From contig CAWIPK010000006.1 of assembly GCA_963837925.1 (NCBI GenBank), positions 1,003,962-1,067,961 of the forward strand: a DNA stretch of 64,000 nucleotides, read 5' to 3'. Under the pieces are notes generated by a model, which ran no database searches, was not told the origin of the DNA, and saw only the letters and a program-made list of their open reading frames with translations. This DNA comes from an uncultured Chloroflexia bacterium. Lineage in GTDB: Bacteria; Chloroflexota; Anaerolineae; CG2-30-64-16. The translations under genes were made by a program, and so were the position numbers. Below, one piece after another: positions 5,731 through 50,751 of this stretch; the first letter of the stretch is position 1, and each line of letters opens with the position of its first letter.

Positions 5731-6375
5731 ATGCAAGCTGTGCGCTCTATTTTTCAGCGCCGCGCGCCTGCCCAGGGCAGCGGGCCGGCGAAGATGATTG
5801 TGGGGTTGGGCAACCCGGGCCCGGAATACGCGCGCAACCGGCACAACGTTGGCTTTCAAGTGGTCGAGCTCTGGGCGCAACGCCACGGGCTGGACTTCGA
5901 CAAGCATCAGAAAAGGGCTCGTCTGGCCATCGGGCGTGTCGAGCTGCCTGGAGGCAAGGCGGAGCGCGTGCTGCTGGCCAAGCCGCTGACTTTCATGAAC
6001 GCGGCCGGCGAATCGATCGGTCCCTTGCGGGCCTTCTACAAGATCGAGGCGGCCGCCATCCTGGTTGTCTCGGATGATCTTGACTTGCCCTTGGGGCGCA
6101 TCCGCTTGCGCTCGGGTGGCGGCGCCGGGGGCCAGAAGGGTGTCAAATCGATCATCCAGCACCTCGGCACAGACGGATTTCCTCGCCTGAGGGTGGGGAT
6201 CGGCCGGCCGCCCGGCAAGATGGATCCGGTCGATTACGTGCTGCAGAATTTCTCGGCGGCGGACGAGGAGACGATGTCAATCGCACACGTTCGGGCGGCC
6301 GATGCCCTTGACGCCTGGCTGGCGCAGGGTATTCACGAAGCGATGAATCAGTTCAACCAGAAAAATGAAACTTAG
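5731..6375 (+). CDS. pth: Peptidyl-tRNA hydrolase
   Basis: The translation contains MIVGLGNPGPEYARNRHNVGF…, the Pth signature. The track start at 5716 is TTG; the ATG at 5731 sits 5 nt after a GAAGGAAG RBS. The N-terminal extension before MIVGLG makes the exact start uncertain. Confidence 0.85.
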   Translation: MQAVRSIFQRRAPAQGSGPAKMIVGLGNPGPEYARNRHNVGFQVVELWAQRHGLDFDKHQKRARLAIGRVELPGGKAERVLLAKPLTFMNAAGESIGPLRAFYKIEAAAILVVSDDLDLPLGRIRLRSGGGAGGQKGVKSIIQHLGTDGFPRLRVGIGRPPGKMDPVDYVLQNFSAADEETMSIAHVRAADALDAWLAQGIHEAMNQFNQKNET

Positions 6376-9300
6376 CGGACTGCTCGACCTGGGCCAAGGC
6401 ATCCCGGGCTACGAAGATTTGCTGGCAGCGCTGAGGGCAGGGGACGGAGTAGCGACGCCGCTAGCGCTTTACCACGCTGCTCGGCCCTACCTGGTCAGCT
6501 TGCTTGCGCGCGCCTTGCAGCGCCCGCTCCTGCTGGTGACGGCGCGCAGCGGCCGGGCCCGGCAGTGGGTGGACGAGTTGCGTATCTGGCTGCCCGACGA
6601 GATCCCGGTGCAACTGTTTGCCGATCCTGATGCTCTGCCCTACGAGCGCATTGCTTGGGCATCAGAGACGCGCCAGCGCCGCCTTGAAGCCTTGGTCGGG
6701 TTGCTGGCCGCCGGCGATACCTCGCGCCGGGGTGAGGTGATGAGCGCCCCGGTCGAGATGATGGGGGCGTCCTCAGGAGTGGCCCCGGTCATCGTCAGCT
6801 CCGCACGCGCCCTCATGCAGGCGACCTTGCCCGTACGTGAGATGCGCGCTGTATTGCGTCCCATCCGTAAGGGACAGCGTTTTGACCTTGACAAGATGCT
6901 GCTGTCTTGGGTGGGGCTGGGCTACGAGAGCATGCCCGTCGTCGAGAGCCCGGGGGAGTTCAGCCGGCGCGGTGGCATCGTAGACGTCTGGCCGCCCAAT
7001 CTGCGGCGGCCCTTGCGCATCGAGCTCTTCGGCGACGAAATCGAGAGCCTGCGCACCTTCGACCCGTCGACTCAGCGCACTCTCATCCAGGTGTCGCAGG
7101 CCTTGATCGGACCGGCCAGCGAGGCCCTCCCGAGGCTGGGTGAACGCGCCGCCGAGGCCCTGCAAGCCCTGGACCTCTCGAACTGCCATCCGCCGGCGCG
7201 CATCGAATTCGAGCGCGAGATCGCGCAGTTGGCAGAAGGCAGCGGCTTTTGCAATCTGGAATGGTATATCCCGTATCTTTACAGCCAGCCGGCCAGCATT
7301 CTCGACTACCTGCCCGGCAACGGTTACTTGTTGCTCGACGACGGGGCCGAGATCGGGGCGACCCTTGCCGATCTGAGCGGCCAGGCCGAACAGGTGGCCC
7401 GCGACCTGGCGACGGCCGGCGATGTTGCGCGCGACCTGCGGGTGCCGTATCTCAGCGCCGATTTGCTGCGCGAGCAGTTCAGCGCGCGCCCGACCCTGCT
7501 GCTCGGTCCAACCACCCTCGAAGGTTGGGGGGCGTCCGCGGCTACCGTCGAGGAGAGCGATTCGGCCGTCACGCAGGCTTTCTCCGCCGGGCCGCGCTAC
7601 GGCGGGCAGGTGCGCAAGGTCACGAGCGACTTGCAGAACAGCCTGGCGGCCGGAGGGCAGATTGTCATGGTCACCCGGCAGGCGACGCGCCTGGCCGAGA
7701 TGCTGGGCGAGGCGGGCTACGCCGTCATGCCGGTCGAGGAACTGACGGCCCCCCCGCCTGCGCTCGCGGTGGTCCAGGGGGTGATGGAAGAGGGCTTCCT
7801 GCTGCGCCGCGATGGCTTCGGCTCAGATTTGTGGTTCTTGACGGACGCTGAACTCTTCGGCTGGGGAAAACCGCGCCCGCGACGCGCCCAAGGGTCGCGC
7901 GCCCTGGCGCCCGAGGTTTTCTTCGCCGACATCACGCCGGGCAACTACGTCGTTCACATGGAACACGGCATCGGGCAATTCCAGGGTCTGATCAAGATGA
8001 GCTTCGAGGGTGTGGAACGGGAGTACCTCCAGCTCGAGTATGCCCAGGGTGATAAGCTGTACGTGCCCGTGCACCAGGCCGACAGGCTTGCCCGTTACGT
8101 CGGAGTCGGCGATGTTGCGCCAGGGCTGCACCGTCTGGGCACTTCCGATTGGGAGCAAGTCAAGGCTCGCACCAAGAAGGCCGTGGCCGAGATCGCCGAC
8201 GATCTGCTCGAGCTCTATGCCGCACGCGAGGTCGTCCAGGGGCACGCCTTCAGCCCTGACGCTCCCTGGCAGGCCGAGCTCGAAGCCAGCTTTCCCTACG
8301 CCGAGACCGAAGACCAGTTGGTGGCGATTGAGGCGGTCAAGCATGATATGGAACAACCGCAGCCGATGGATCGCCTGATCTGCGGCGACGTCGGCTACGG
8401 CAAGACGGAAGTGGCCCTGCGGGCAGCGTTCAAGGCCATCATGGACGACAAACAGGTTGCCGTGCTGGTGCCGACCACGGTTCTTGCGCAGCAACACTTT
8501 ACGAACTTCAGCCGCAGGCTGGCGTCCTTCCCTGTCAACGTCGCCATGCTCTCACGCTTTCAGACTCCCGCCGAGCAAGACAAGACCCTGGAAAGGTTAG
8601 CCAGCGGCAGCGTCGATCTGGTCGTCGGTACGCACCGCCTGCTCAGCAAAGACGTCATTTTCAAAGACCTGGGGCTGCTGATCGTGGACGAAGAGCAGCG
8701 TTTCGGCGTGACTCACAAAGAACGCATCAAGCAGATGCGTACCGAGGTGGACGTGCTCACGCTGACGGCCACGCCGATCCCGCGCACCTTGCACATGAGC
8801 CTGACCGGCGTGCGCGACCTGAGCACCATCGACACCCCGCCGGAGGAACGGCTGCCGATCAAGACCATTGTGGCCGAGTTCGACGAGACCATGATCCGCC
8901 AGGCCATCCTGCGGGAAATCGACCGCAACGGCCAGATCTACTTCGTGCACAACCGTGTTCAGGGCATCGAGCAGATGGCCGCACAGTTGCAGAAGATCGT
9001 GCCAGAGGCGCGCCTGGCAATCGCTCACGGGCAGATGCCGGAGAAAGAGCTTTCGTCGGTCATGCTGGCCTTTGCCGACGGGGAATACGACGTTCTTGTC
9101 TGCACGAGCATCATCGAGAGTGGGCTCGACATACCCAATGTCAACACCATTCTCATCAATCGTGCCGACCAGTTTGGCCTGGCGCAGCTCTACCAGTTGC
9201 GTGGCCGCGTCGGCCGCTCGGCGGTCCGGGCCTATGCTTACCTGGTGGTCGACAAATACAAGACCCTCACCGGCGATGCCCGCCGCCGGCTGGAGGCGAT

Positions 9301-10012
9301 CGAAGAGGCGAGCGAGTTGGGGGCCGGGTTCCGGATTGCCATGCACGACCTGGAGATCCGCGGCGCCGGTGAACTGCTAGGCGCGCGCCAACACGGGCAC
9401 ATCGTCGCCGTCGGCTTCGATCTCTACACCCGTCTGCTGGCCCAGGCAGTGCAAGAGGCGCGTGACGCCGAGCGGGAACAGGCCCGCCGTGACATTGACG
9501 CGCGCCGGGCGCAGACGGGCGCGGCCCTGGCCGGTGAGGCCGCGCCCGCCCAGGATAGGAGCGCTCTGCAGGACCGGTTGACCCCCGCAGTCACTCTCGA
9601 GCTCAACATCCCGGCCAGCCTCCCCGAGGACTACGTGCCGGAAACCGGGCTGCGGCTGCAGCTCTACCGGCGCCTGGCCGGCCTCAACAGTTTGCAGGCC
9701 ATCGAGGACGTGCGACAGGAATTCCTCGATCGCTTTGGCCCGCTACCGGAGGAGGTGGAGAACCTGCTGTTCGTGGTCAAAGTGAAGGTCCTGGCCATCA
9801 CGGCAGGCGTCGAGGTGATCAGCCAGGAAGATACGCAACTGGTTATCAAGAGTGCCCGGCTGGAATCAGCCGACCGGCCCGCCAACCTGCAAGAACGTTT
9901 ACGGGCCAACGACGTGCCGGCGCGCCTGGCCCGCCGCTCAATCTGGCTGCCAATGCGCGAGACGGGCGGCTGGCGCCGCGACCTGCTGGTGACGCTCGAG
10001 TCAATGCGCTGA
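6365..10012 (+). CDS. mfd: Transcription-repair coupling factor
   Basis: 1215 aa with a UvrB-homology N-terminus, RecG-like SF2 helicase motifs (…[16 protein letters not shown]…, …[11 protein letters not shown]…, …QLRGRVGRS…) and a TRCF C-terminal domain. Confidence 0.95.
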
Positions 10013-15316: not shown

Positions 15317-17872
15317 CTATTGAGCAGCCTGCCCGTTCTCGATTGGCGTAGCAGGCTCGGGTTGCGAGGCGGGCAGCGGCTTGCGCTTGGAGCGCGTGCG
15401 CTTTGGTTTGGCGGCAACAGCCACGGTCCTGGGCAGCAGCGCGAGCGAGAGAATCTCGTCCATGCGGTCGACCAGGACTAGCTTCAGGTCGTGCCGGATC
15501 TTGCCCGGCACGTCGACCAGGTCCCGCTGATTGCGACGGGGCAGCAGCACGGTCTTCAGGCGTGCCCGGTGCGCCGCGACCACTTTCTCTTTGAGGCCAC
15601 CGATTGGCAGCACCCGCCCACGCAACGTTATCTCGCCGGTCATGGCCAGGTCGTGGCGCAGCGGCCGTTCGCTCAAGGCCGAGATGAGAGCGGCGGCCAT
15701 GGTCACCCCCGCACTGGGACCATCCTTCGGGATGGCTCCTTCGGGCACGTGGATGTGCAGGTCCACCTTGTCGAAGTCTACATCGCCCAACTCGAACTCG
15801 CCGGCATGCGCACGGGCATAGGTCAGCGCGGCCTGCGCCGACTCCTGCATAACCTCCCCCAGTTGCCCCGTTAGCGTCAGGCTGCCTTTACCCAGCATCA
15901 CGGAGACTTCCACCTGCATGACATCGCCGCCGCCTTCGGTCCAGGCCAGGCCGTTCGCGACGCCGATCTGGTCCACCTCTTCCGTGAGCCACTCGGTGAA
16001 TTCAGGCGGCCCCAGGTACTTGTCCATCATGCTCGGCTGGATTCGGCGCGGGATCGACTTGCCCTCGGCCAGGCGTCGGGCGAGCTTGCGGCAGATGTTG
16101 GCGATCGAGCGTTCAAGATTGCGCACTCCGGCTTCATAGGTGTACTCGCGCATCATCGTTCGCAGCGCAGCCGAGGTGAAGGTCACCTGTTCTGGCTTGA
16201 GACCATGCGCCTCCAGTTGGCGCGGCACCAGGAACTTTTGCGCAATAGCCAGTTTTTCGTCCTCGATGTAGCCGGGGAAGTCGATCACTTCCATTCGATC
16301 GCGCAGGGCCGGCGGGATCGGATCCAAGATGTTCGCCGTGGTGATGAACATGACCTTGCTCAGGTCATAGGGCACTTCGAGGTAATGATCGCTGAAGGCG
16401 TGGTTCTGCTCGGGGTCGAGCACTTCCAGCAGGGCCGAGGAAGGGTCGCCGCGGAAGTCGGCGCCCAATTTATCGATCTCGTCGAGCATGAAGAGCGGAT
16501 TGATGGTTCCGGCGTTGTGCATCGTCTGGATGATCCGGCCGGGCAGCGATCCGATGTAGGTCCGGCGATGGCCGCGGATTTCTGCCTCGTCGCGCACGCC
16601 TCCCAGACTCACGCGCACAAACTTGCGCCCAAGCGCGTCGGCGATGGACTTACCAAGGCTGGTCTTGCCGGTCCCGGGCGGGCCGACGAAACACAGGATC
16701 GGGCTTTTCATCTTGTCGGGCGCCAGCTTGCGCACGGCCATGTGCTCCAGGATGCGTTCCTTGATCCTCGGTAGCCCGTAGTGGTTTTGTTCCAGCATCT
16801 CGGCCGCGCGCGGGATGTCGAGATTGTCTTCGGTTGCCTTCGACCAGGGCAAGCCCAGCAGCCAGTCGAGATAGTTGTGGACGACATTTACCTCCGGCGA
16901 CGCTTGTGGCATCGCCGCCAGCCGGTTGATCTCCTTCTCGGCCTTGGACTTTACCTCAGCCGACATCCCGGCGGCCAGGACTTTTTCCCGCAGGTCGGCG
17001 AGGTCACGGATCGCATCGTCCGTCTCGCCAAGCTCGCCCTGGATGATCCGCATCTGCTCGCGCAGGAAGTATTCGCGTTGTGACTTGTCTACCTCTTGCT
17101 GCACCTGATTCTGGATCTGGTCTTCCAGTTCCAGAACGTCCAGCTCCTGGCCCAGAAGGATGCTCAGGCGCTGCAGCCGGACTCCCGCATCGAGCAGCTC
17201 CAGCATTTCCTGCCGCTGCGCCAGCTCGATGTCCAGGACGTGCGCGATGAGGTCGGCCAGGCCCCCGGGTTCCTTTTCGTTCATGGCCGCCACATAAGCG
17301 TCTTCAGGCAGGTTTGGGTTCAGGTCGACGACTTTCTCGAACAGCGCCAGGACGGCCCGCATCAACGCTTCGCCGGCCATGTCATGGCGTTCATCTTCGT
17401 GCAGCGGCACACCCCTCACCCGCAGGTAAGGCTCGCTGCTGATCTTTTCGATTATCCGCACACGCTCGATGCCCTGCACGAGCAAGGTGGTGCTGCCATC
17501 GGGCATGTGGAGCACGCGCCCGATTTCGACCGCCGTGGCTACACTGTACAGGTCAGACAGGTCAGGGTCCAGCACTTCAGGGTCGCGCTGCGCGACTACC
17601 AGCAGCGGCGCGTCCATCGCCTCGGCGGCTTCTACGGCACGGATCGAGCGATCGCGTCCGATAAACAAGGGTGACACCAGGCTGGGGAAGACGACCGTGT
17701 CGCGCAGCGGCAAGACCGGGTATTCGTTCCCCTCCAGGCTTTCTATCTCGACGGGAACGTGCTGCCGGCGCGCGCTGCCCTTACGGTTGCGAGCGCCGTC
17801 GCGCGCGAAAAGATTGAGCATGGACAACTGAGTGTCCATTTTTGTGGCTTGCTCACGACGCAGATGGGCCAA
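15317..17872 (-). CDS. lon: ATP-dependent Lon protease
   Basis: 851 aa with a Lon N-domain, an AAA+ Walker A ([11 protein letters not shown]), a sensor/arginine finger and a C-terminal protease domain with the catalytic S/K region (…[17 protein letters not shown]…). The track start at 17872 is TTG, 4 nt after GGAGG. An alternative ATG lies at 17839. Confidence 0.95.
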
Positions 17873-42101: not shown

Positions 42102-43808
42102 TCAGGACGGCGATTCGCATTCATCCGCCGCAACGGACGCACCATCCTGAGCGCGCAGGCTGAAATCGCAAATCGACCAGGGCAGGAAGTCGCCGCGAGC
42201 ACGTTCACCGACGAAATCTGCAGCCTGAAGGCCATGACGGGCCAGGGCATCATGGAAAGCCCGGATGCTGTGCTCGGGCATGTCGAGCAGGACCGGGGCC
42301 AGCCGCCGGTCGCCGCGTGCCAACACTGCCTGCACCTCGGCCCAGCCGGGCGAGTCAGCGTGCACGGCCACCTGGTGTCTACCCAGTGCGCGTTTGAGCG
42401 AGTTCTGCCGGGCTTGCATGGTCCTGACCGGGGTCATGGCCACCCGTTCGAAAGATGTGTGGGCTTTGGGCACGAACGGCGTCGCGTTGATGGCGATGTT
42501 GCGCCGGAACAGCGACTTGGCCCGCAGGGTCAGGTCGACGATGGCCTGAATATCTTCATCGGTCTCGCCAGGATGGCCGATCATGAAGTACAGCTTGAGC
42601 TGCGGAAATGCCAGGCTCTGCGCCAGCTCAACCGCGCCCAACAGATCGTCGTCGCTCTGGCGCTTATTGATGAACTGGCGCAGGCGCTGGCTGCCGGCCT
42701 CGGGGGCGATGGTCAACGTCTGGGTGCCGCTCGCGGCCATGGCCCTGACGAGGGGCACGCTGATCGGGTCCGTCCGCATGGAGCTGACGCTGATGCGCGC
42801 CCCCATCGACTGCAGCTCGTCCGCCAGCTGGTCGATGTGGCTATGGTCGGACACCGCCGCCGATACCAGCCCGATACCCAATCCGTCCGTCCCACTATCG
42901 CCGCCGGTCGCCGGCCGGTCAGCGCGCCGCCGTCCTGCTGCGCCACTCCCGGACTTGCCCGTCAGCCGAGCGCCGGCAAAGGACGAGGAGGCCAGCGCCC
43001 CTCGCGCCCAGCCCAGGATGCGTTCCAGGGGCTGTTCGCGTGCCGGCCGATAGGCCGCGCCCGCCAGGCAGAAGCGGCAACCTCTCCCGCAGCCGCGTGC
43101 GATCTCTATCAGGTGCATGCCGCCGAATTCAGTATCCGGGGTATACAGGCTGGAGACTGGTTCGAGGCGTTCGACGTCCTTGACCCATAGCCGGCGCACC
43201 CGGCGTCCGCCGTTGGCGGGCAGGACGAGAGAGGGCACGTAGAAGCCGGGCAGCGCGTCCAATGCCTCCAACAGGCGCGCGCGGGGTTCTTCCCGGCCCT
43301 CATACAGTAGCGCGGCGAGCGGCTCCACGATCTCCTCGGCCTCGCCGATGATCATCGCGTCAAAAAACGGTGCCAGGGGTTCGGGGTTCATCGTAATCCC
43401 CGGCCCACCGGCGATCAAGAGCGGCCAAGCTTGCTCCGCGCGACGGTCGCGGGCAAGCGGAGGCATCCCTGCCTGCTTGAGCATCGCCACGAGGTTGAAA
43501 TAGTCCATCTCATACGAGACGGTGAAGGCCCAGACATCGAAGGCCGCCAGGTCGGTGCCCGATTCGAGTGAGAGCAGCGGCACATCGGCAGCCGCGCCCG
43601 CCTGGTCCCAGAAGGCGCGCTCGCAAACCACGTCGGGAAGGCGGTTGAAGGCACGATACAGGATCTGCAGGGCCAGGCTGGACATACCGACATAGTATGT
43701 ATTTGGGAAAGCCAGGGCGATCCGCAGCTTGCCTCCATGATCTTTGTAGACCGTCCCGGTCTCGCGGTTCAGCACGTCCCGGCCGGCCGCGATCTGTTTC
43801 CACGTCAA
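42102..43808 (-). CDS. Radical SAM protein with an N-terminal B12-binding-like domain (TIGR03960-like)
   Basis: The translation has …IEIARGCGRGCRFCLAG…, a CxxxCxxC cluster motif, and an N-terminal …KLRIALAFPNTYYVGMSSLALQILY…. Confidence 0.75.
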   Translation of the reverse strand: MTWKQIAAGRDVLNRETGTVYKDHGGKLRIALAFPNTYYVGMSSLALQILYRAFNRLPDVVCERAFWDQAGAAADVPLLSLESGTDLAAFDVWAFTVSYEMDYFNLVAMLKQAGMPPLARDRRAEQAWPLLIAGGPGITMNPEPLAPFFDAMIIGEAEEIVEPLAALLYEGREEPRARLLEALDALPGFYVPSLVLPANGGRRVRRLWVKDVERLEPVSSLYTPDTEFGGMHLIEIARGCGRGCRFCLAGAAYRPAREQPLERILGWARGALASSSFAGARLTGKSGSGAAGRRRADRPATGGDSGTDGLGIGLVSAAVSDHSHIDQLADELQSMGARISVSSMRTDPISVPLVRAMAASGTQTLTIAPEAGSQRLRQFINKRQSDDDLLGAVELAQSLAFPQLKLYFMIGHPGETDEDIQAIVDLTLRAKSLFRRNIAINATPFVPKAHTSFERVAMTPVRTMQARQNSLKRALGRHQVAVHADSPGWAEVQAVLARGDRRLAPVLLDMPEHSIRAFHDALARHGLQAADFVGERARGDFLPWSICDFSLRAQDGASVAADECESPS

Positions 43809-44473
43809 GGTAACTTAACTCTCCAAACTTCCAGTTGCCGGCGCCAGGCGTCCGGGAACCAGCCCAAGTCCTCGAGCGTCGTGACCACCATCGAGCTGGC
43901 CTCGCGCACCGCATACCACACTCTCAAGGGCAGGTAGATCCGGTTTGTCTCGGTGCTGGTCGGGCTCGTCACAACCTGCACGCCCGCGTTCCTAAAGTAC
44001 CAGCGAGCCCGGAAAACGTGCAGCGGATGGCTAACCAGGATCGCCTGTTTCCAGCCGTTTTCGGCCATCACCGCTGCGGCCGCCCGAGCGTCTTCGGCGG
44101 TATTGGCCGTCCCGTCGGCGAGAAACACGCGCTCCGGTGGCACTCCCTGTGCCACGGCATTCTTGCGACAGACCGCCGCGGCCGAGAGGCGCTCGTTCTT
44201 GAACCCACCGCTGCAAATGATAGACGGCGCGTAACCCTCGCGCCAGAGCGCCACCGCGTGCCCGGTACGGTTGACCAGGTCAGAGCCCGGCTGTCCATCA
44301 GGCTCAACCCGTGCCCCCAGAACCACGATCACGTCGGCCGAACGGACGTCGTCCTGCTGGCCGAGACGATCGACCTGCCACGCCAGCAGGGCGAGGCCGG
44401 CTATGCTGCACAGGGCAGTCCCGGCCAGGAGCATAGCCGCGCCGCGCACCAGGCGCCGAAACAAGCGCTTCAT
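43805..44473 (-). CDS. DUF218 (YdcF/SanA/ElyC-like) domain protein with an N-terminal TM anchor
   Basis: The ATG is at 44473 (MKRLFRRLVRGAAMLLAGTALCSIAGLALLAW). The DUF218 core reads …VIVVLGARVEPDG…IICSGG…VSHPLHVFRA… The 5' extension in the track is rejected. Confidence 0.65.
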   Translation of the reverse strand: MKRLFRRLVRGAAMLLAGTALCSIAGLALLAWQVDRLGQQDDVRSADVIVVLGARVEPDGQPGSDLVNRTGHAVALWREGYAPSIICSGGFKNERLSAAAVCRKNAVAQGVPPERVFLADGTANTAEDARAAAAVMAENGWKQAILVSHPLHVFRARWYFRNAGVQVVTSPTSTETNRIYLPLRVWYAVREASSMVVTTLEDLGWFPDAWRRQLEVWRVKLP

Positions 44474-44692
44474 GGAGAGGAAGTATAACACAGGCAGCGA
44501 ATTCGATCCTAGGGGCAACGCAAGAACCACCCTGATTTTCCGGTAATTGGGGGACAAATTGAGCCTGAACCTACACAAATACCGGCCAGCGGGGGTCAAT
44601 GTTTGCGCCAGATTCAGGCTCAATGCCTGTGGCCTCGGAACGCAGTACCTCCGACAGATTACGGCTAAGGAGCGCGTCTGAAACGTGCGGCC

Positions 44693-47600
44693 TCAGCACT
44701 CACTGTAGCCGCAGACGTAGCACTTGCGGCAGCCCTCGGTCGGGATGAAGGCGGCCTGGCCGCAGTCTGGGCATAGGTCGCCGATCGGCCGCTCGCTGAT
44801 CGGCAGGACAAGCTGCTCGGCCGGGGGCTCGGCGGGCGGCGAGGCCGGCTCCTCAGGCACCTGGTCGTCCACGTAGCTCCGGTGGCCCTGATAGACTGTG
44901 GCTCCGTCGTCGTCCTCGTCATCCGACCCGGGTTCGTAATCGCTGCGCAGATGCTCACGCAGGACCTGGGCGACCGCATCGGGCAGTGAGCGGACACGCT
45001 TGGCGCCGAAGCCCAGCGTGCGCCCGCCGCCGATGCCGGCCATCTGGTCGATCACTTGTTTCAGCCTCTCCACCGTGTCGAGTGGAGAGGGCAAGCGCAG
45101 GATCAGCGAGATCAGCCGCCCCACCGCCTCCGAGACCGCCGCCACGTCGCTCCCGGCCTTGCCCACGTTGAGGAAGACCTCGAACGGTTTCTCGTCGCCG
45201 TTAACGTTTACCGTGACGAAAGCCGTGCCGAGCGGGGTCTCCTTGCGGTAGGTGACGCCGTGCAGCGCGGCGGGGCGCGGGCGTTTGACGGCTGGGAGCG
45301 GAGGCAGGGCGGCGGGCGCGTGTGCCGGGGCCGGCTGCGGCACTGGCATCGACCTGGCCAGGCTGGGTGGCGCTTTCTCCGTTATGGTCGCGGAGGTATT
45401 GCCGTTCGCAGCCATCGCGACCGAGCCCGGCTGAACGGTTTCGTGTGGCCCCGTTCCGTTCCCGTGGCCGGCCGTCGCTTGCTCCGCCTTCTGTTCCGCG
45501 GTAGCCCTGGTTTCCAACACCACTTCGTGCCGGCTGCCGGTCACATAAACGGTCAGGCCTTTGCAACCCAGGCGCCAGGCGAGCTCGTACGCCTGCTTGA
45601 CGTCCTCGACACTGGCTGTGGACGGGAAATTGATCGTGTTGTGATTGCCCAGGCCATTGGCGATAAAGGAGTGCGAGCCGGGAACGCTCAGATCGAAGAC
45701 CTCGGCGAAGCTGGGCTCGATGGCTTCCACGTCCAGGTAGATGCGATCCGGCCGGTCTTGAGCGAAAAACGCCTGCGCGTACGGATCGGGTCTATCGCCA
45801 AAGTGCTGATAGAGCGTCCTTGCCAGTCCTCGATCAAGCCGATGTGACTGCAGCGTGTTGACGCGCGCCCGCTGGTATTGCTGAGTCTGCTCACCATACA
45901 GACTGCGCAACGAGCGGTCCGAGGCCTGCTGCATACGTTGTAGCAACTCCGTCAGCGGCTGGGGCAGTAACTCGGTATAGGTGAAGAGGCGGTGTCGCCG
46001 CCCGCTATCTCGCTGGCCCATACGCTCCGTTTTCCAGCTTTCATCGAACTCGATCAGCCTTCCCAGGCGTTCGAGCGCGCTGCCGGCCACAGTTAGCGCC
46101 CAGGCGTGCTCCTGGGATCGATGGAGGCGCGAGGTGATTCCAAAATTCAGGAACAGGACTTGCAGTTGTTGGAGCAGCGCCCGGCTGGCCAGGCCGATGC
46201 CGAACATCCGGCCATCCTGCGTCATGTAACTATCGAGGAACAGCCCACGCAGGAAAGAGATCATCTCCGTCCGGCTCGCCCGCAGAATGCAGCTCGGGAT
46301 GATCTTGTTGCGCGCTCCGGCCTCCATCCCCAGGTCGGCCAGGAGCCAGTTGCGCACATGGCGAGAGTTAACCTGCAGGGTGTAGACGCTCTCTCGGCGC
46401 ATGTCCTTGCAGATGTGTGAGGACTTGCCGAAGACCCGCTGGAATGACTCTCCAAGTCGCTCGAGCAGCTCCCGGTCGCCGTTAGTGATGTAGACGCCGT
46501 TGCGGGTGAGCGCGCCCTCCGAGGTGATGCAGCCCAGGATGTATGCCAGTTCGCTCGACATCACTTCTGGGAAGGAGATGTCCTTGGAGTTCGTTAGCCG
46601 TTCCTGGCAGTAACACGGCAAGGGCTGACCGGCCGGCCCAAACACCTGCTGGTTGCTGTAGAGGACGGCAGTGTCGCCAACTTTTAGCTCATCCAACCGC
46701 AGGAATTGGACTGAGCCGTCCGCGGCCAGCACCTGGATGCGGTGATTGGGCGTCCCTTCTACATGGTAGCCGTAGGACAGCCGGACGCGCCGTGTTTCGC
46801 GCATACCGCCGTAGTAGAAGGCTTCGCTTTTTTCAGTGCCGACCGGCGTCACGATCTCCAGGCCCAGCGGTTCGAACTGGTCAGGCAGGCGCAACTCGGA
46901 CAACTCTGCGATGGGCCGAAGCCCCTGGGCAGTCAGCACCAGGGTGTCGCCGGTAACACACTTGCTGATCGAGTTATCGACAAACGCCTGGATGGCGGCT
47001 TGCATGCGGACGTGCTCTTCGGCGCTGATGTCCTGCGCGACGACGAAGACGCGGCGGACCTCGGGCGGCACCAGGCTAACGTCCTGGCAACTGCCGGTCG
47101 AGCTGACTTGCTCGCTGATGGCCTCACGGGCTGCCTTGTCCAGCCCGGCTCGCTCGAGGGCCGCCTCGAACAGCGGGCTGGTATAGGTGAGCCTGAGATC
47201 CTGGTCCCGCTCCTTGACCGTGCGGGTGTACGCCAGGGCAAATACAGGCTCGCAGCCGTAGCCTTCGCAGCCTGCCACCGTACCGATGGTGCCAGTCGGC
47301 GCAACCGTGGTCTGGGCGGCGTTACGGATACCGTGCTCCTTGATCCCGGCCACAATTGCCGCCCAGTCGAGCGCCGGCCGTCCCCAGTCATGCGAGAAGG
47401 CTGCTAACGGGACCGGCGGCTGCCACTTGAGGTCCTGCGGATCGTAGATGCTGCCCTTGATCGCCTGGAACGGACCGCGCTCGCGGGCGAGCTCGACACT
47501 GGTGGCCATCGAATGGTAGCGGATGAACTCGGTCAGCTGCGCAGCCAGTTCCTGGCCCTCCGCCGAGCCATAGCGCACGCCCACCCGGTACATCAGGTCG

Positions 47601-48730
47601 CCCAGGCCCATCATGCCGAGGCCGATGCGCCGGCAGCGCAGGGCCGCCTCTTCCAGCTGCGGCACTGCCGGGACGTACTTGTTGGCGTCCACGACATTGT
47701 CCAGGAAGCGGGTACAGGCGACCGCGCTCTCGCGCAGTTTCTCCCAGTCGACGTACCCTTCGGGGGTGACATGCTGGGCCAGGTTGATCGAGCCGAGGCA
47801 GCAGTTCTCGCCCGGACCCAGCCACTGTTCGCCGCACGGATTTGTGGCTTCTAGCACATAAAGGTTCGGCACCGGATTGGCGCGGTTGGCCGCATCCAGG
47901 AACAGGGCGCCCGGCTCGCCGTTGCGGTGGGCATAGGTGACCAGCTTGTCGAACAGATCGCGCGCGCGGACCGTCCGCCAGACCGTGCCATCACGTGGGT
48001 TCACCAGCGGGAAGTCGGCGTCGGCCTCGACGGCTTGCATGAAGGCGTCCGTTATGCCGACCGAGATGTTGAAGTTGCTTATCTGCCCTTCGCGCGCCTT
48101 GCAGGCGATGAACTCTTCGATGTCGGGATGGTCGACGCGCAGCACGCCCATATTGGCGCCGCGCCTCGTCCCCCCTTGGGCCACCTCGCCGAAAGCGGCG
48201 TCGTAGACGCGCAGGAAACCCACCGGGCCGCTGGCAACGCCGGCGCTTTTGCCGACCCGGTCACCTCTTGGCCGCAGGCGCGAGAAGGCAAAACCGTTGC
48301 CGCCCCCTGTCTGCTGGATCAGGGCGGCGTCGCGCAGGGTCTGAAAGATTCCGTCCGGCTCCTTACCCAGGTCGTCGGAGATGGCCAGCACAAAGCAGGC
48401 CGCTAATTGGCCGAGCGGGGTGCCGGCGCCGGTGAAAGTGGGGGAGTTGGGGAAAAAGCGCAGGCTGGTCAGCAAGCCGTAGAAAAACTCCTCGGTGCTC
48501 GCAACGTCGTAGCCATAGGCCGCGTCTGGCTGGGCTACTGTGTGGGCCACCCGGCGAAACATGCCTTCGATGCTCTCGATCGGCTCGCTTTCCGGGCCCC
48601 GGCGCAGGTAACGCTTCTCCAGGACCTTGCGGCCGTTCTCGGAGATCTCAATCTCGGCTGGCGGCCGGATGGCCGGCTGGAATGGTTTGACGGCGTGGTC
48701 GATCATGAGTGGAACCTCTCCAATCAACAA
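44693..48730 (-). CDS. nrdJ: Adenosylcobalamin-dependent (class II) ribonucleotide reductase containing an in-frame intein
   Basis: The active-site region reads …[25 protein letters not shown]… The C-terminal region is NrdJ-like with a terminal CPDCG…CRKCYVCG zinc ribbon. The extein is about 904 aa, and the 441-aa insertion is flanked by the conserved NSISK|TIN motif. Confidence 0.9.
45638..46960 (-). mobile_element. Intein (441 aa) with a LAGLIDADG homing-endonuclease core, inserted in nrdJ
   Basis: The N-terminal splice block is [13 protein letters not shown] (Cys1). The TxxH block is [19 protein letters not shown]-like motifs are [13 protein letters not shown] and [14 protein letters not shown]. 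The C-terminal block is [21 protein letters not shown] followed by Thr(+1). Borders were computed by residue counting from the track start (residues 591-1031). Confidence 0.8.
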
Positions 48731-48763: not shown

Positions 48764-49213
48764 TCAGTTGTGTTCGGACATAAGGCGCACCAGCTCGCGC
48801 TGCAGCGCCTCGACGTCTGCCAGCTCCAGGTAGACGATGGCGAAACGAATGTAGGCCAGCGGGTCCAACTCTTTGAGTTTCTCCAGTACCATCTGCCCGA
48901 TCACCTCGCTCTTGACCTCGGCCCGACCAAGGCTGAAGAGGTGCTCCTCGATCTGGCCGACAACCCGCTCGATGTCGGCCATCGCGATCGGACGCTTGGC
49001 GCACGCGATGCGCAAGCCCTCCAGAAGTTTGTTGCGATCGAAAGGCTCACGCCGCCCGTCGCGCTTCACGATGAGCAGCGCCTCCGAGATCTGCTCGTAG
49101 GTGGTGAAGCGCTTTCGACAGGTCTGGCACTCACGGCGCCGGCGGATGGACTCGGCGGTGGCGCGAGTGTCGACCACCCGAGAATCGGGATGACCGCAAT
49201 AAGGACAAAGCAT
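48764..49213 (-). CDS. nrdR: Transcriptional repressor NrdR
   Basis: The translation starts MLCPYCGHPDSRVVDTRATAESIRRRRECQTCRKRFTTYE…, a zinc ribbon plus ATP-cone. It ends 33 nt upstream of nrdJ. Confidence 0.9.
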   Translation of the reverse strand: MLCPYCGHPDSRVVDTRATAESIRRRRECQTCRKRFTTYEQISEALLIVKRDGRREPFDRNKLLEGLRIACAKRPIAMADIERVVGQIEEHLFSLGRAEVKSEVIGQMVLEKLKELDPLAYIRFAIVYLELADVEALQRELVRLMSEHN

Positions 49214-49624
49214 GGCAGAATCACCTTACCCCGTTGCCCGGGATCACAGACTCGAGGCGGCATACATCGGTGAACGACCCAGAAGTGCTGGTGCTGTGCC
49301 GGCGACGGCGAGGCGGAAACAGCGGCTGCCGGCCGGCTCCTCACTGGCTCTGGTCCGGTGCTTCAGCGCATGCTACTACGGGTAGTATACAAGGACCGGA
49401 AAAGTGCCATATGTAGGGGAGCCACCGGTCAACGGAGTTTACCACAAGAACCGGGGGTTGGCAAGGGGTCAAATCGTTTCGCCGGAATAACTTTAAGGTC
49501 GGAAAATCGCGAGGCCGGGGTGCACACGCCTCTCGGGAACGCCTGTTCCTTGTCGTCCCGAGAGGCAGGCAACGCGAAGACATCCAACGCGCGCGGGGCT
49601 TGTTGGCCTCACAGATGAGCTCAA

Positions 49625-49677: not shown

Positions 49678-50751
49678 TCAGCGGGCTCGGCGCAAGAAGG
49701 CCGGGATATCCAGATCGTCCCGGTCGAAGGTGCGCTTCGGGAACTCGATGGTCTTCGCCTCTTCCGGGGTTGGGACCTTCTGTTCTTTTATCGCCTCGAA
49801 GCCCGTGGCGATGACTGTGATGCGGACCTCGTCCTTCAGCTCAGGATCGATGACCGCACCGAAGATGATGTTGGCATCCGGATCGGCAGTACGGCGGATG
49901 ATCTCCGCCGCCTCGTTGACCTCGTAAAGGCTGAGATCCGGTCCACCGGTGACGTTGAACAAGATGCCCTGCGCGCCCTCGATGCTCACGTCGAGCAGAG
50001 CGCTGTGGATGGCTTGTTCAGCCGCGTTCTGCGCGCGGTTGTCACCGCTGGCCCTACCGATCGCCATCAGTGCCGATCCACCCTCGTTCATGATACTGCG
50101 TACGTCGGCGAAGTCCAGGTTGATCAGGCCCGGGATGGTGATCAACTCGGAAATGCCCTGGATGCCCTGGCGCAGCACGTCATCGGCCATTCGGAAAGCT
50201 TGCTGGATGCTGGCCTTCTTGTCCACAACCTGCAATAGCCGGTCGTTGGGGATGACGATGAGCGTGTCCACGCCTTCGCGCAGTCGGGCGATGCCTTCAT
50301 CGGCACACTTGCGGCGTTTGGCGCCTTCAAAGGTGAAGGGCTTGGTAACGACGCCGATGGTCAGCGCGCCGGTGTCCTTGGCCAGCTTGGCGACCACGGG
50401 AGCCGCGCCCGTCCCTGTGCCGCCACCCATGCCTGCCGTCACGAAGACCATGTCGGCGCTCTTGAGCATGGCCTTGATCTCCTCACTCGACTCCTGGGCT
50501 GCTTTCTCGCCGGTCTCGGGGTGCCCACCCGAGCCGAGGCCCTTGGTGAGCTTGTCGCCGATGCGCATCCGCTGCGGCGCCTGTGCCAGCATCAGTGCCT
50601 GCGCGTCGGTGTTCACTGCGATGAACTCGACGCCCTGGATGCCTTCCTCGATCATGCGATTGACGGCGTTCGAGCCACCGCCGCCGATGCCCAGCACCTT
50701 GATTTGCGCCGGATTTTCCACAAAGGCTGTTTGGGGTGATCTAGAATTCAT
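49678..50751 (-). CDS. ftsZ: Cell division GTPase FtsZ
   Basis: The translation contains [13 protein letters not shown], the GGGTGTG tubulin signature (…[13 protein letters not shown]…), and a C-terminal …[10 protein letters not shown] tail. Confidence 0.97.

Follow-up and report, generated by a model that had tools for sequence, protein, structure and literature searches.

The window analysed here, a stretch of 64,000 nucleotides from contig CAWIPK010000006.1 of an uncultured Chloroflexia bacterium, holds on its minus strand the gene nrdJ for a class II, adenosylcobalamin-dependent ribonucleotide reductase (RNR), which is interrupted by an insert of 441 amino acids (aa). From its sequence and from a structural model, we interpret this insert with high confidence as a canonical class 1 intein that contains a LAGLIDADG homing endonuclease, placed at the NrdJ motif DNSISK|TIN (the vertical bar marks the insertion point). 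The host gene is the longest open reading frame (ORF) of the region (44693..48730, minus strand), and has 1345 aa when counted from the first in-frame TTG (48730). The original prediction gave this length, which stands for the reading frame but probably not for the protein: the true start is probably the ATG at 48706 (MIDHAVKPF), because GGAGAGG lies just 5' of it and the N-terminus then agrees with that of the closest homologue (P0054). The precursor would thus have 1337 aa, with the intein at residues 583-1023. The features of the gene are as follows.

44693..48706, minus strand: nrdJ precursor gene (class II, adenosylcobalamin-dependent ribonucleotide reductase), from TIGR02504, PF02867, PF00317 and PF12637, with the start placed by P0054 and the Shine-Dalgarno sequence
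46961..48706, minus strand: N-extein, 582 aa from the ATG, with the catalytic TNPCGE; aligns to 1xje up to ISK, 87.9% nucleotide identity to L001 (the DNA of P0054)
45638..46960, minus strand: predicted intein, 441 aa (1323 bp), Cys1 to His440-Asn441, from sequence, family models and structure model
46646..46960, minus strand: predicted N-terminal splicing (HINT) subdomain, intein aa 1-105, from TIGR01445, the beta-strand model and the Foldseek match to the Mxe GyrA intein
46934..46960, minus strand: block A with Cys1, from sequence
46742..46753, minus strand: block B, T70-P-N-H73 (TPNH), with the TxxH kept in relatives
46085..46561, minus strand: predicted LAGLIDADG homing-endonuclease core, intein aa 134-292, from PF14528 (two stretches), the model fold and the I-DmoI match
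46514..46549, minus strand: motif 1 (block C), ending ITSEG, with the catalytic E148, from alignment
46229..46255, minus strand: motif 2 (block E), FLRGLFLDS, with the catalytic D243, from alignment
45758..46084, minus strand: predicted helical extension (seven helices) after the endonuclease core, intein aa 293-401, from the model, with YQRARVN conserved in relatives
45638..45757, minus strand: predicted C-terminal splicing subdomain, intein aa 402-441, with blocks F and G, from TIGR01443 and conservation
44693..45637, minus strand: C-extein from Thr+1, with the end of the RNR barrel, a low-complexity linker, TSCPD, a CxxC...CxxC ribbon and the stop codon, from the 1xje alignment, PF12637 and translation

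The insert and its borders in nrdJ

Judged by family models and motifs, the host protein is NrdJ, as had been proposed. It scores 623 bits against the NrdJ equivalog model TIGR02504 (cut-off 400; here and below, the curated cut-off of each model), and its exteins match PF02867 (E = 6e-123) and PF00317. A TSCPD domain (PF12637) lies at aa 1161-1261 of the ORF, and the catalytic TNPCGE motif (thiyl-radical loop) at residue 289. In the C-terminal third of the protein (44693..45500, minus strand), the RNR barrel is followed by an Ala/Pro-rich low-complexity linker of about 90 aa and then by the TSCPD domain, beyond which come an acidic stretch (SDDEDDD) and a terminal, zinc-ribbon-like CPDC...CRKC motif; everything from linker to ribbon is conserved in relatives.

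The insert lies exactly at the coordinates first assigned to it, with the same length. It opens with CVTGDTLVL at ORF residue 591, providing Cys1, and closes with GLGNHN at residue 1031, so that both of the borders that had been read from the sequence are present. The insertion point falls between the Lys and the Thr of the conserved motif DNSISK|TINFP, splitting it as predicted, with Thr at +1. All three family models named for checking the original prediction score above their cut-offs: TIGR01445 (intein N-terminal) with 36.4 bits against 24.5 over intein aa 1-75, TIGR01443 (intein C-terminal) with 21.4 against 15.6 over aa 420-441, and PF14528 (LAGLIDADG_3) with 43.3 against 22.5 in two stretches. 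PF14890 (Intein_splicing) adds 39.9 bits against 35.8 over aa 46-441. These models, with scores that chance could hardly produce, bear out, at the level of architecture, the claim of a full intein with a putative homing endonuclease.

The splice blocks (A, B, F and G) all have the canonical form. Block F carries Asp423 and His430, and block G reads ANGLGNHN, with His440 and Asn441 directly before Thr+1. In the intein alignment V421, D423, V426, P427, F432, A434, N435, G436, H440 and N441 are each at least 90% conserved; C1, the TxxH of block B, E148, D243, D423, H440 and N441 are conserved among the intein relatives. The intein has a GC content of 0.612, with 0.769 at third codon positions (GC3), against 0.665 and 0.832 in the extein.

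Comparison with intein-free NrdJ, the other check proposed, gives a clean gain. The spliced extein aligns to NrdJ of Thermotoga maritima (1xje) with E = 1.5e-106 and without a gap through the DNSISK-TIN junction, where the 1xje segment reads YVDNNISKTINMPQSATVDDV. Most of the 120 best NrdJ homologues have 830-908 aa and no intein, in agreement with the length of about 900 aa expected for NrdJ without the insert. The closest of them (P0054; 908 aa, 86% aa identity) is intein-free, and its DNA (L001) is 88% identical to the nrdJ of the window upstream of the insert and 81% downstream. The two genes show a net difference in length of exactly 1323 bp, with codon-exact junctions, and they agree at 101 of the 120 bases around the junction. 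At the junction itself, L001 has the Ser codon TCT where the window has AGC, and Ala for Ile at +2. The predicted intein-less site is ...GATAACTCGATCAGCAAG|ACGATCAATTTCCC..., the fused flanks being GTCGATAACTCGATCAGCAAGACGATCAATTTCCCGTCCACA. The original prediction had named an unclean excision, with no blocks A and G at the borders, as the observation that would contradict it; what we found is an excision clean to the codon, with both blocks canonical.

Relatives at the same site

A word-indexed protein search returned 23 relatives of the insert (P0001-P0023; 38-74% identity), which belong to NrdJ and occupy the same site wherever the extein flanks can be checked, with 47-74% intein identity for those placed in other NrdJ proteins in this way; homologues of the insert reach E = 3e-198 in the protein search. 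The best intein match in the searched collections is 74% identical over part of the sequence, and 70% over 95% of it; among GTDB species representatives the best is 66%. The NrdJ of the window and its intein are themselves absent from these collections, the protein collection giving 86% identity as the highest for the extein, so that the DNA (GC 65%) would come from a lineage missing there, probably of Chloroflexota. In a genome scan (one genome per GTDB species), we found 36 species with an intein relative of 406-448 aa and 42-66% identity, at DN[SA][IL]SK|C...HN|T[ICVS]N. All 36 copies are free of internal stops, and there is no mini-intein among them; 33 have 441-448 aa and three are shorter (406-419 aa). 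According to their record labels, 35 of the genomes are Chloroflexota or unclassified and one is a Chloracidobacterium. The carriers are labelled Anaerolineae/Anaerolineales, Ardenticatenales, Caldilineales, Aggregatilineaceae, Chloroflexus sp., Chloroflexia and unclassified Chloroflexota, with one unclassified bacterium.

The similarity of the inteins does not follow that of their hosts. Compared with the window, the Chloracidobacterium copy (L027) has an extein about 31% identical (residues 301-590) and an intein 59% identical. A second genome (L007) has an intein 62%, a C-extein 45% and an N-extein about 31% identical, the last value coming from a local alignment of 29 aa only. In a third (L032) the extein is 79% identical and the intein 49%. 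This discordance indicates horizontal spread of the intein, as far as sequence comparison can tell. Since it is accompanied by a closest extein that is free of the intein and by a dip in GC and GC3, the pattern bears the signature of a homing element, with gain, loss and transfer among nrdJ alleles. We also considered whether the empty allele (L001) resists the endonuclease through its junction differences, and rejected this, given that wobble and TCN/AGY differences of this kind also occur at these positions among the intein-bearing alleles of the 36 genomes.

Other inteins are frequent in this protein. In close NrdJ relatives, unrelated inteins occur near residues 112, 179-200 and 299 (TNP|CGE), and some of these proteins have two or more. 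Many related genes have two to four, at about residue 112, QGG|TRRGA, TNP|CGE and ISK|T (e.g., L027, L008, L025, L004 and L007, with N-extein ORFs of 1413-1914 aa, and P0091, P0171, P0177 and P0178); the nrdJ of the window has the one at ISK|T only. Some records depart from the common form. One protein of 458 aa (P0011, from a 4084-bp Logan contig), 47% identical, lacks Cys1 (GLAPETLVLT), the TxxH (AVGQ) and the terminal HN; from its sequence it looks like an intein-derived ORF without splicing residues, free-standing or degenerate. On three longer contigs (P0008, 38 kb; P0009, 27 kb; P0014, 34 kb) the intein-bearing nrdJ is called as truncated or frameshifted, starting or ending within the intein, which could reflect an error of assembly or sequencing, or real decay. 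NCBI labels fragments of relatives "LAGLIDADG family homing endonuclease".

Predicted structure, activity and alternatives

An AlphaFold2 model of the intein, built on an alignment of 44 sequences, has a mean predicted local distance difference test score (pLDDT) of 93.5 and a predicted template modelling score of 0.92. In the model, the N-terminal segment (aa 7-101) is all beta-strand and the C-terminal one (aa 406-440) is rich in beta-strand, while aa 136-292 form the endonuclease core, with a duplicated alpha-beta-beta-alpha-beta-beta-alpha pattern. The helical extension that follows has pLDDT values mostly above 85, falling to 65 at aa 321-330, and is presumed from the model to be an extra DNA-binding or support region. 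When the fold was compared with the PDB using Foldseek, the top matches were endonuclease-bearing inteins: TliVMA (7qss; E = 6e-26, template modelling (TM) score 0.68), PI-TkoII (2cw7), PhoVMA (7qst), PI-PfuI (1dq3) and PI-SceI. The next tier consists of inteins with the HINT domain only, namely Mxe GyrA (1am2; root-mean-square deviation 1.7 A), the Ssp DnaB mini-intein and PhoCDC21-1. Free LAGLIDADG enzymes also match (I-DmoI, TM 0.65-0.75; I-Tsp061I, 0.68). A sequence search of the PDB agrees, with weak but significant matches to 7qsu and 7qss. Model and Foldseek thus support a HINT fold assembled from the N- and C-terminal segments.

Both LAGLIDADG-like strings of the original prediction are present in the endonuclease core. 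The second is one residue shorter than the canonical form and has Ser for the final Gly; HMMER and MAFFT both place a one-residue gap in it such that Asp243 lines up with the catalytic Asp. The shortening is, by alignment, a feature of the whole clade, in which block E reads FLRGLF-LD[SGA][YF]M, whereas the canonical FLRGLFDxDG of the next-closest inteins is one residue longer. Because it is clade-wide, it is no lesion particular to the copy in the window. D243 is invariant in the 44 aligned sequences, and position 148 is nearly invariant as Glu/Asp, being Glu or Asp wherever an aligned sequence covers it. This conservation, together with the lack of any mini-intein among the 36 genomic copies, argues indirectly, at the sequence level, that the endonuclease is under selection.

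Given the intact catalytic residues, the fold and the comparative data, splicing of the intein is very likely, and we lean, with considerable reserve, towards an endonuclease that is currently active. Along the established intein pathway, the 1337-aa precursor would be translated and Cys1 would undergo an N-S acyl shift, helped by Thr70 and His73 of block B. The hydroxyl of Thr+1 would attack the thioester to give a branched intermediate, after which Asn441, helped by His440, would cyclise and release the intein. An O-N shift would then restore a normal peptide bond, leaving active NrdJ with about 896 aa. Once released, the 441-aa intein would act as a monomeric two-motif LAGLIDADG enzyme, with E148 and D243 as catalytic residues, cutting intein-free nrdJ at ...GATAACTCGATCAGCAAG|ACGATCAATTTCCC..., and repair of the break would copy the intein in (homing).

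Several observations weigh against an intein that is still homing. The short second motif and its terminal Ser could, judged by sequence, lower or abolish nuclease activity. No database intein is more than 74% identical, and hence there is no sign of very recent homing. We found no phage or plasmid vector either, the best phage match (27%) being in a RecA or helicase gene. The same observations are what would be expected of an intein that still splices but whose endonuclease is inactive or decaying, late in the homing cycle, and which persists only vertically, because its imprecise loss would destroy an essential gene. We regard this as possible, though clearly the less probable state. It has to be set against the invariance of D243 and the retention of Glu/Asp at position 148, and against genomic relatives among which only three are short and none is interrupted or reduced to a mini-intein. 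The discordance between inteins and exteins also implies transfers within the clade, and the final residue of motif 2, which is Ser, Gly or Ala over the clade, suggests that Ser is tolerated.

Other explanations concern the insert as a whole. The intein could be a conditional, environment-sensing switch that delays the maturation of NrdJ, in which case it would be a domesticated regulator and not purely selfish. Its site does lie in a motif that is strictly conserved in the rate-limiting enzyme for deoxynucleotide (dNTP) synthesis and is occupied in many species, and regulatory roles have been proposed for inteins that cluster at functional sites (PMC4760082; see also PMC4513877). A required function is nevertheless hard to reconcile with the intein-free state of P0054 and of most of the 120 best matches, and we identified no regulatory sequence feature, such as a Cys pair placed to trap Cys1, so that we find this role improbable. 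A non-splicing insert, be it a dead intein disrupting nrdJ or a chimera produced by the assembly, is more improbable still. Although the genes truncated or frameshifted inside the intein on long metagenomic contigs (P0008, P0009, P0014) would fit it, the 4-kb frame of the window is open, every nucleophile and assisting residue is present, the junctions are codon-exact, and the GC3 of the intein is still high (0.77), as fits a translated gene.

Gene surroundings and the wider intein family

Directly upstream of nrdJ lies nrdR (48764..49213, minus strand; Zn-ribbon and ATP-cone, PF22811 and PF03477), about 55 bp from the ATG at 48706, which suggests an nrdR-nrdJ operon. In the region upstream of nrdR (49214..49470), the only promoter-like site is a weak sigma-70-like one (49464..49436, minus strand), and the promoter/terminator search found no terminator. 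Two short palindromes, CATATG near 49410 and GTATAC near 49388, also lie upstream of nrdR. NrdR boxes are expected at a spacing of about 31-32 bp, and with their centres 23 bp apart we do not claim these palindromes as such. An Rfam scan of the whole window returned nothing, and thus neither a cobalamin riboswitch nor an RNA element of another kind in the vicinity of nrdJ. The neighbours are ordinary chromosomal housekeeping genes. Upstream of nrdR is ftsZ (49678..50751, minus strand), named from its translation alone; the other genes seen, at loci that include 6365..10012 (plus strand) and 15317..17872 (minus strand), are mfd/TRCF, lon, a radical SAM gene (42102..43808), a DUF218 gene (43805..44623), and genes for a DUF2079 membrane protein and for a PMT-family glycosyltransferase. 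The nine ORFs of the window that were scanned showed no further intein.

When 1.84 billion representatives were searched exhaustively with HMMER, 5006 relatives of the intein came out at E <= 1e-3 and 170 at E <= 1e-30. The nearest known inteins are those of bacterial and archaeal RNR ("RIR1") at the homologous ISK|T site (L002-L037, P0096, P0118 and P0001-P0023; 42-74% identity), which share host, insertion point and blocks A, B, C, E, F and G with that of the window, as well as its length class (406-448 aa) and the YQRARVN helical extension; their hosts include Chloracidobacterium. In a survey of bacterial inteins, RNR ranks second among the host proteins, with 211 inteins, Chloroflexi and Acidobacteria are among the host phyla, and PhoH and RecA are in the top 15 hosts (PMC4760082). 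The catalogued RNR alleles include rir1-b, -g, -k, -l and -m, of which some occur in an uncultured Chloroflexi bacterium (PMC4071816). The literature on rir1 alleles gave no residue-level positions by which the site could be matched to an InBase letter.

The solved endonuclease-bearing inteins TliVMA/PhoVMA (7qss, 7qsu, 7qst), PI-TkoII (2cw7), PI-PfuI (1dq3) and PI-SceI (1vde) resemble the window intein in their split HINT domain, two-motif LAGLIDADG core and accessory regions, with Foldseek values from E = 6e-26 to 3e-11 and TM up to 0.68. They are, however, only 12-19% identical to it and lie in other host proteins or at other sites; their activity has been demonstrated, whereas that of the window intein is predicted. 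PI-PfuI does interrupt the RNR of Pyrococcus, but at a different site, and the Pyrococcus NrdJ model NF006207 runs continuously through ISK|T in the extein of the window, which means that the model has no intein there.

Next after these RNR ISK|T inteins comes a tier of full-length matches with 25-37% identity, which are flanked by [AS][IV]SK|T[IV]N.P, the homologous site, in other RNR lineages, by QGG|TRRGA and PTG|T in RNR, and by the Walker A GK|T of assorted ATPases. The indexed search and the genome scan concur in placing PhoH (GTGK|TY) and RecA (GPESSGK|TT) inteins in this tier, and the closest relatives outside RNR (P0024-P0044; L043-L051; P0203, P0214, P0247 and others) all sit between Lys and Thr in Walker A P-loops. 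These P-loop GK|T inteins (25-34% full-length identity) share with the NrdJ intein Lys at -1 and Thr at +1, block A as C[VI]xxD[TS]LVLT and blocks F and G as VYDLTVPGSHSFxANGFxNHN. They differ from the NrdJ clade in their hosts and in their canonical second motif, FLRGLFDxDG against FLRGLF-LD[SGA].

For the annotation of nrdJ, these results mean that the gene should be recorded as an intein-containing precursor with a mature product of about 896 aa, and neither as a 1345-aa enzyme nor as a separate "homing endonuclease" gene. The sequence itself is new, with at most 74% identity to anything found; the kind, a selfish element, is well known, and because RNR already ranks among the proteins richest in inteins and dozens of public genomes have an intein at this very site, the understanding of inteins is, on sequence grounds, unchanged. 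For protein engineering or nuclease mining, the finding provides another naturally diverged Cys1/Thr+1 intein and another LAGLIDADG scaffold, whose target of about 40 bp can be predicted. Since the closest relative lacks the intein, its presence or absence can serve as a lineage marker among Chloroflexota. The only thread that is mildly novel is the possible kinship of the RNR ISK|T and P-loop GK|T inteins together with the shortened second LAGLIDADG motif. Tentatively, and with low expectation that it will hold, we suggest that the two are one lineage that hopped between unrelated genes through the shared Lys(-1)/Thr(+1) context, the shortening of motif 2 retargeting the endonuclease upon entry into RNR. 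If true, this would be a concrete and traceable case of ectopic intein transfer with an accompanying change in the nuclease.

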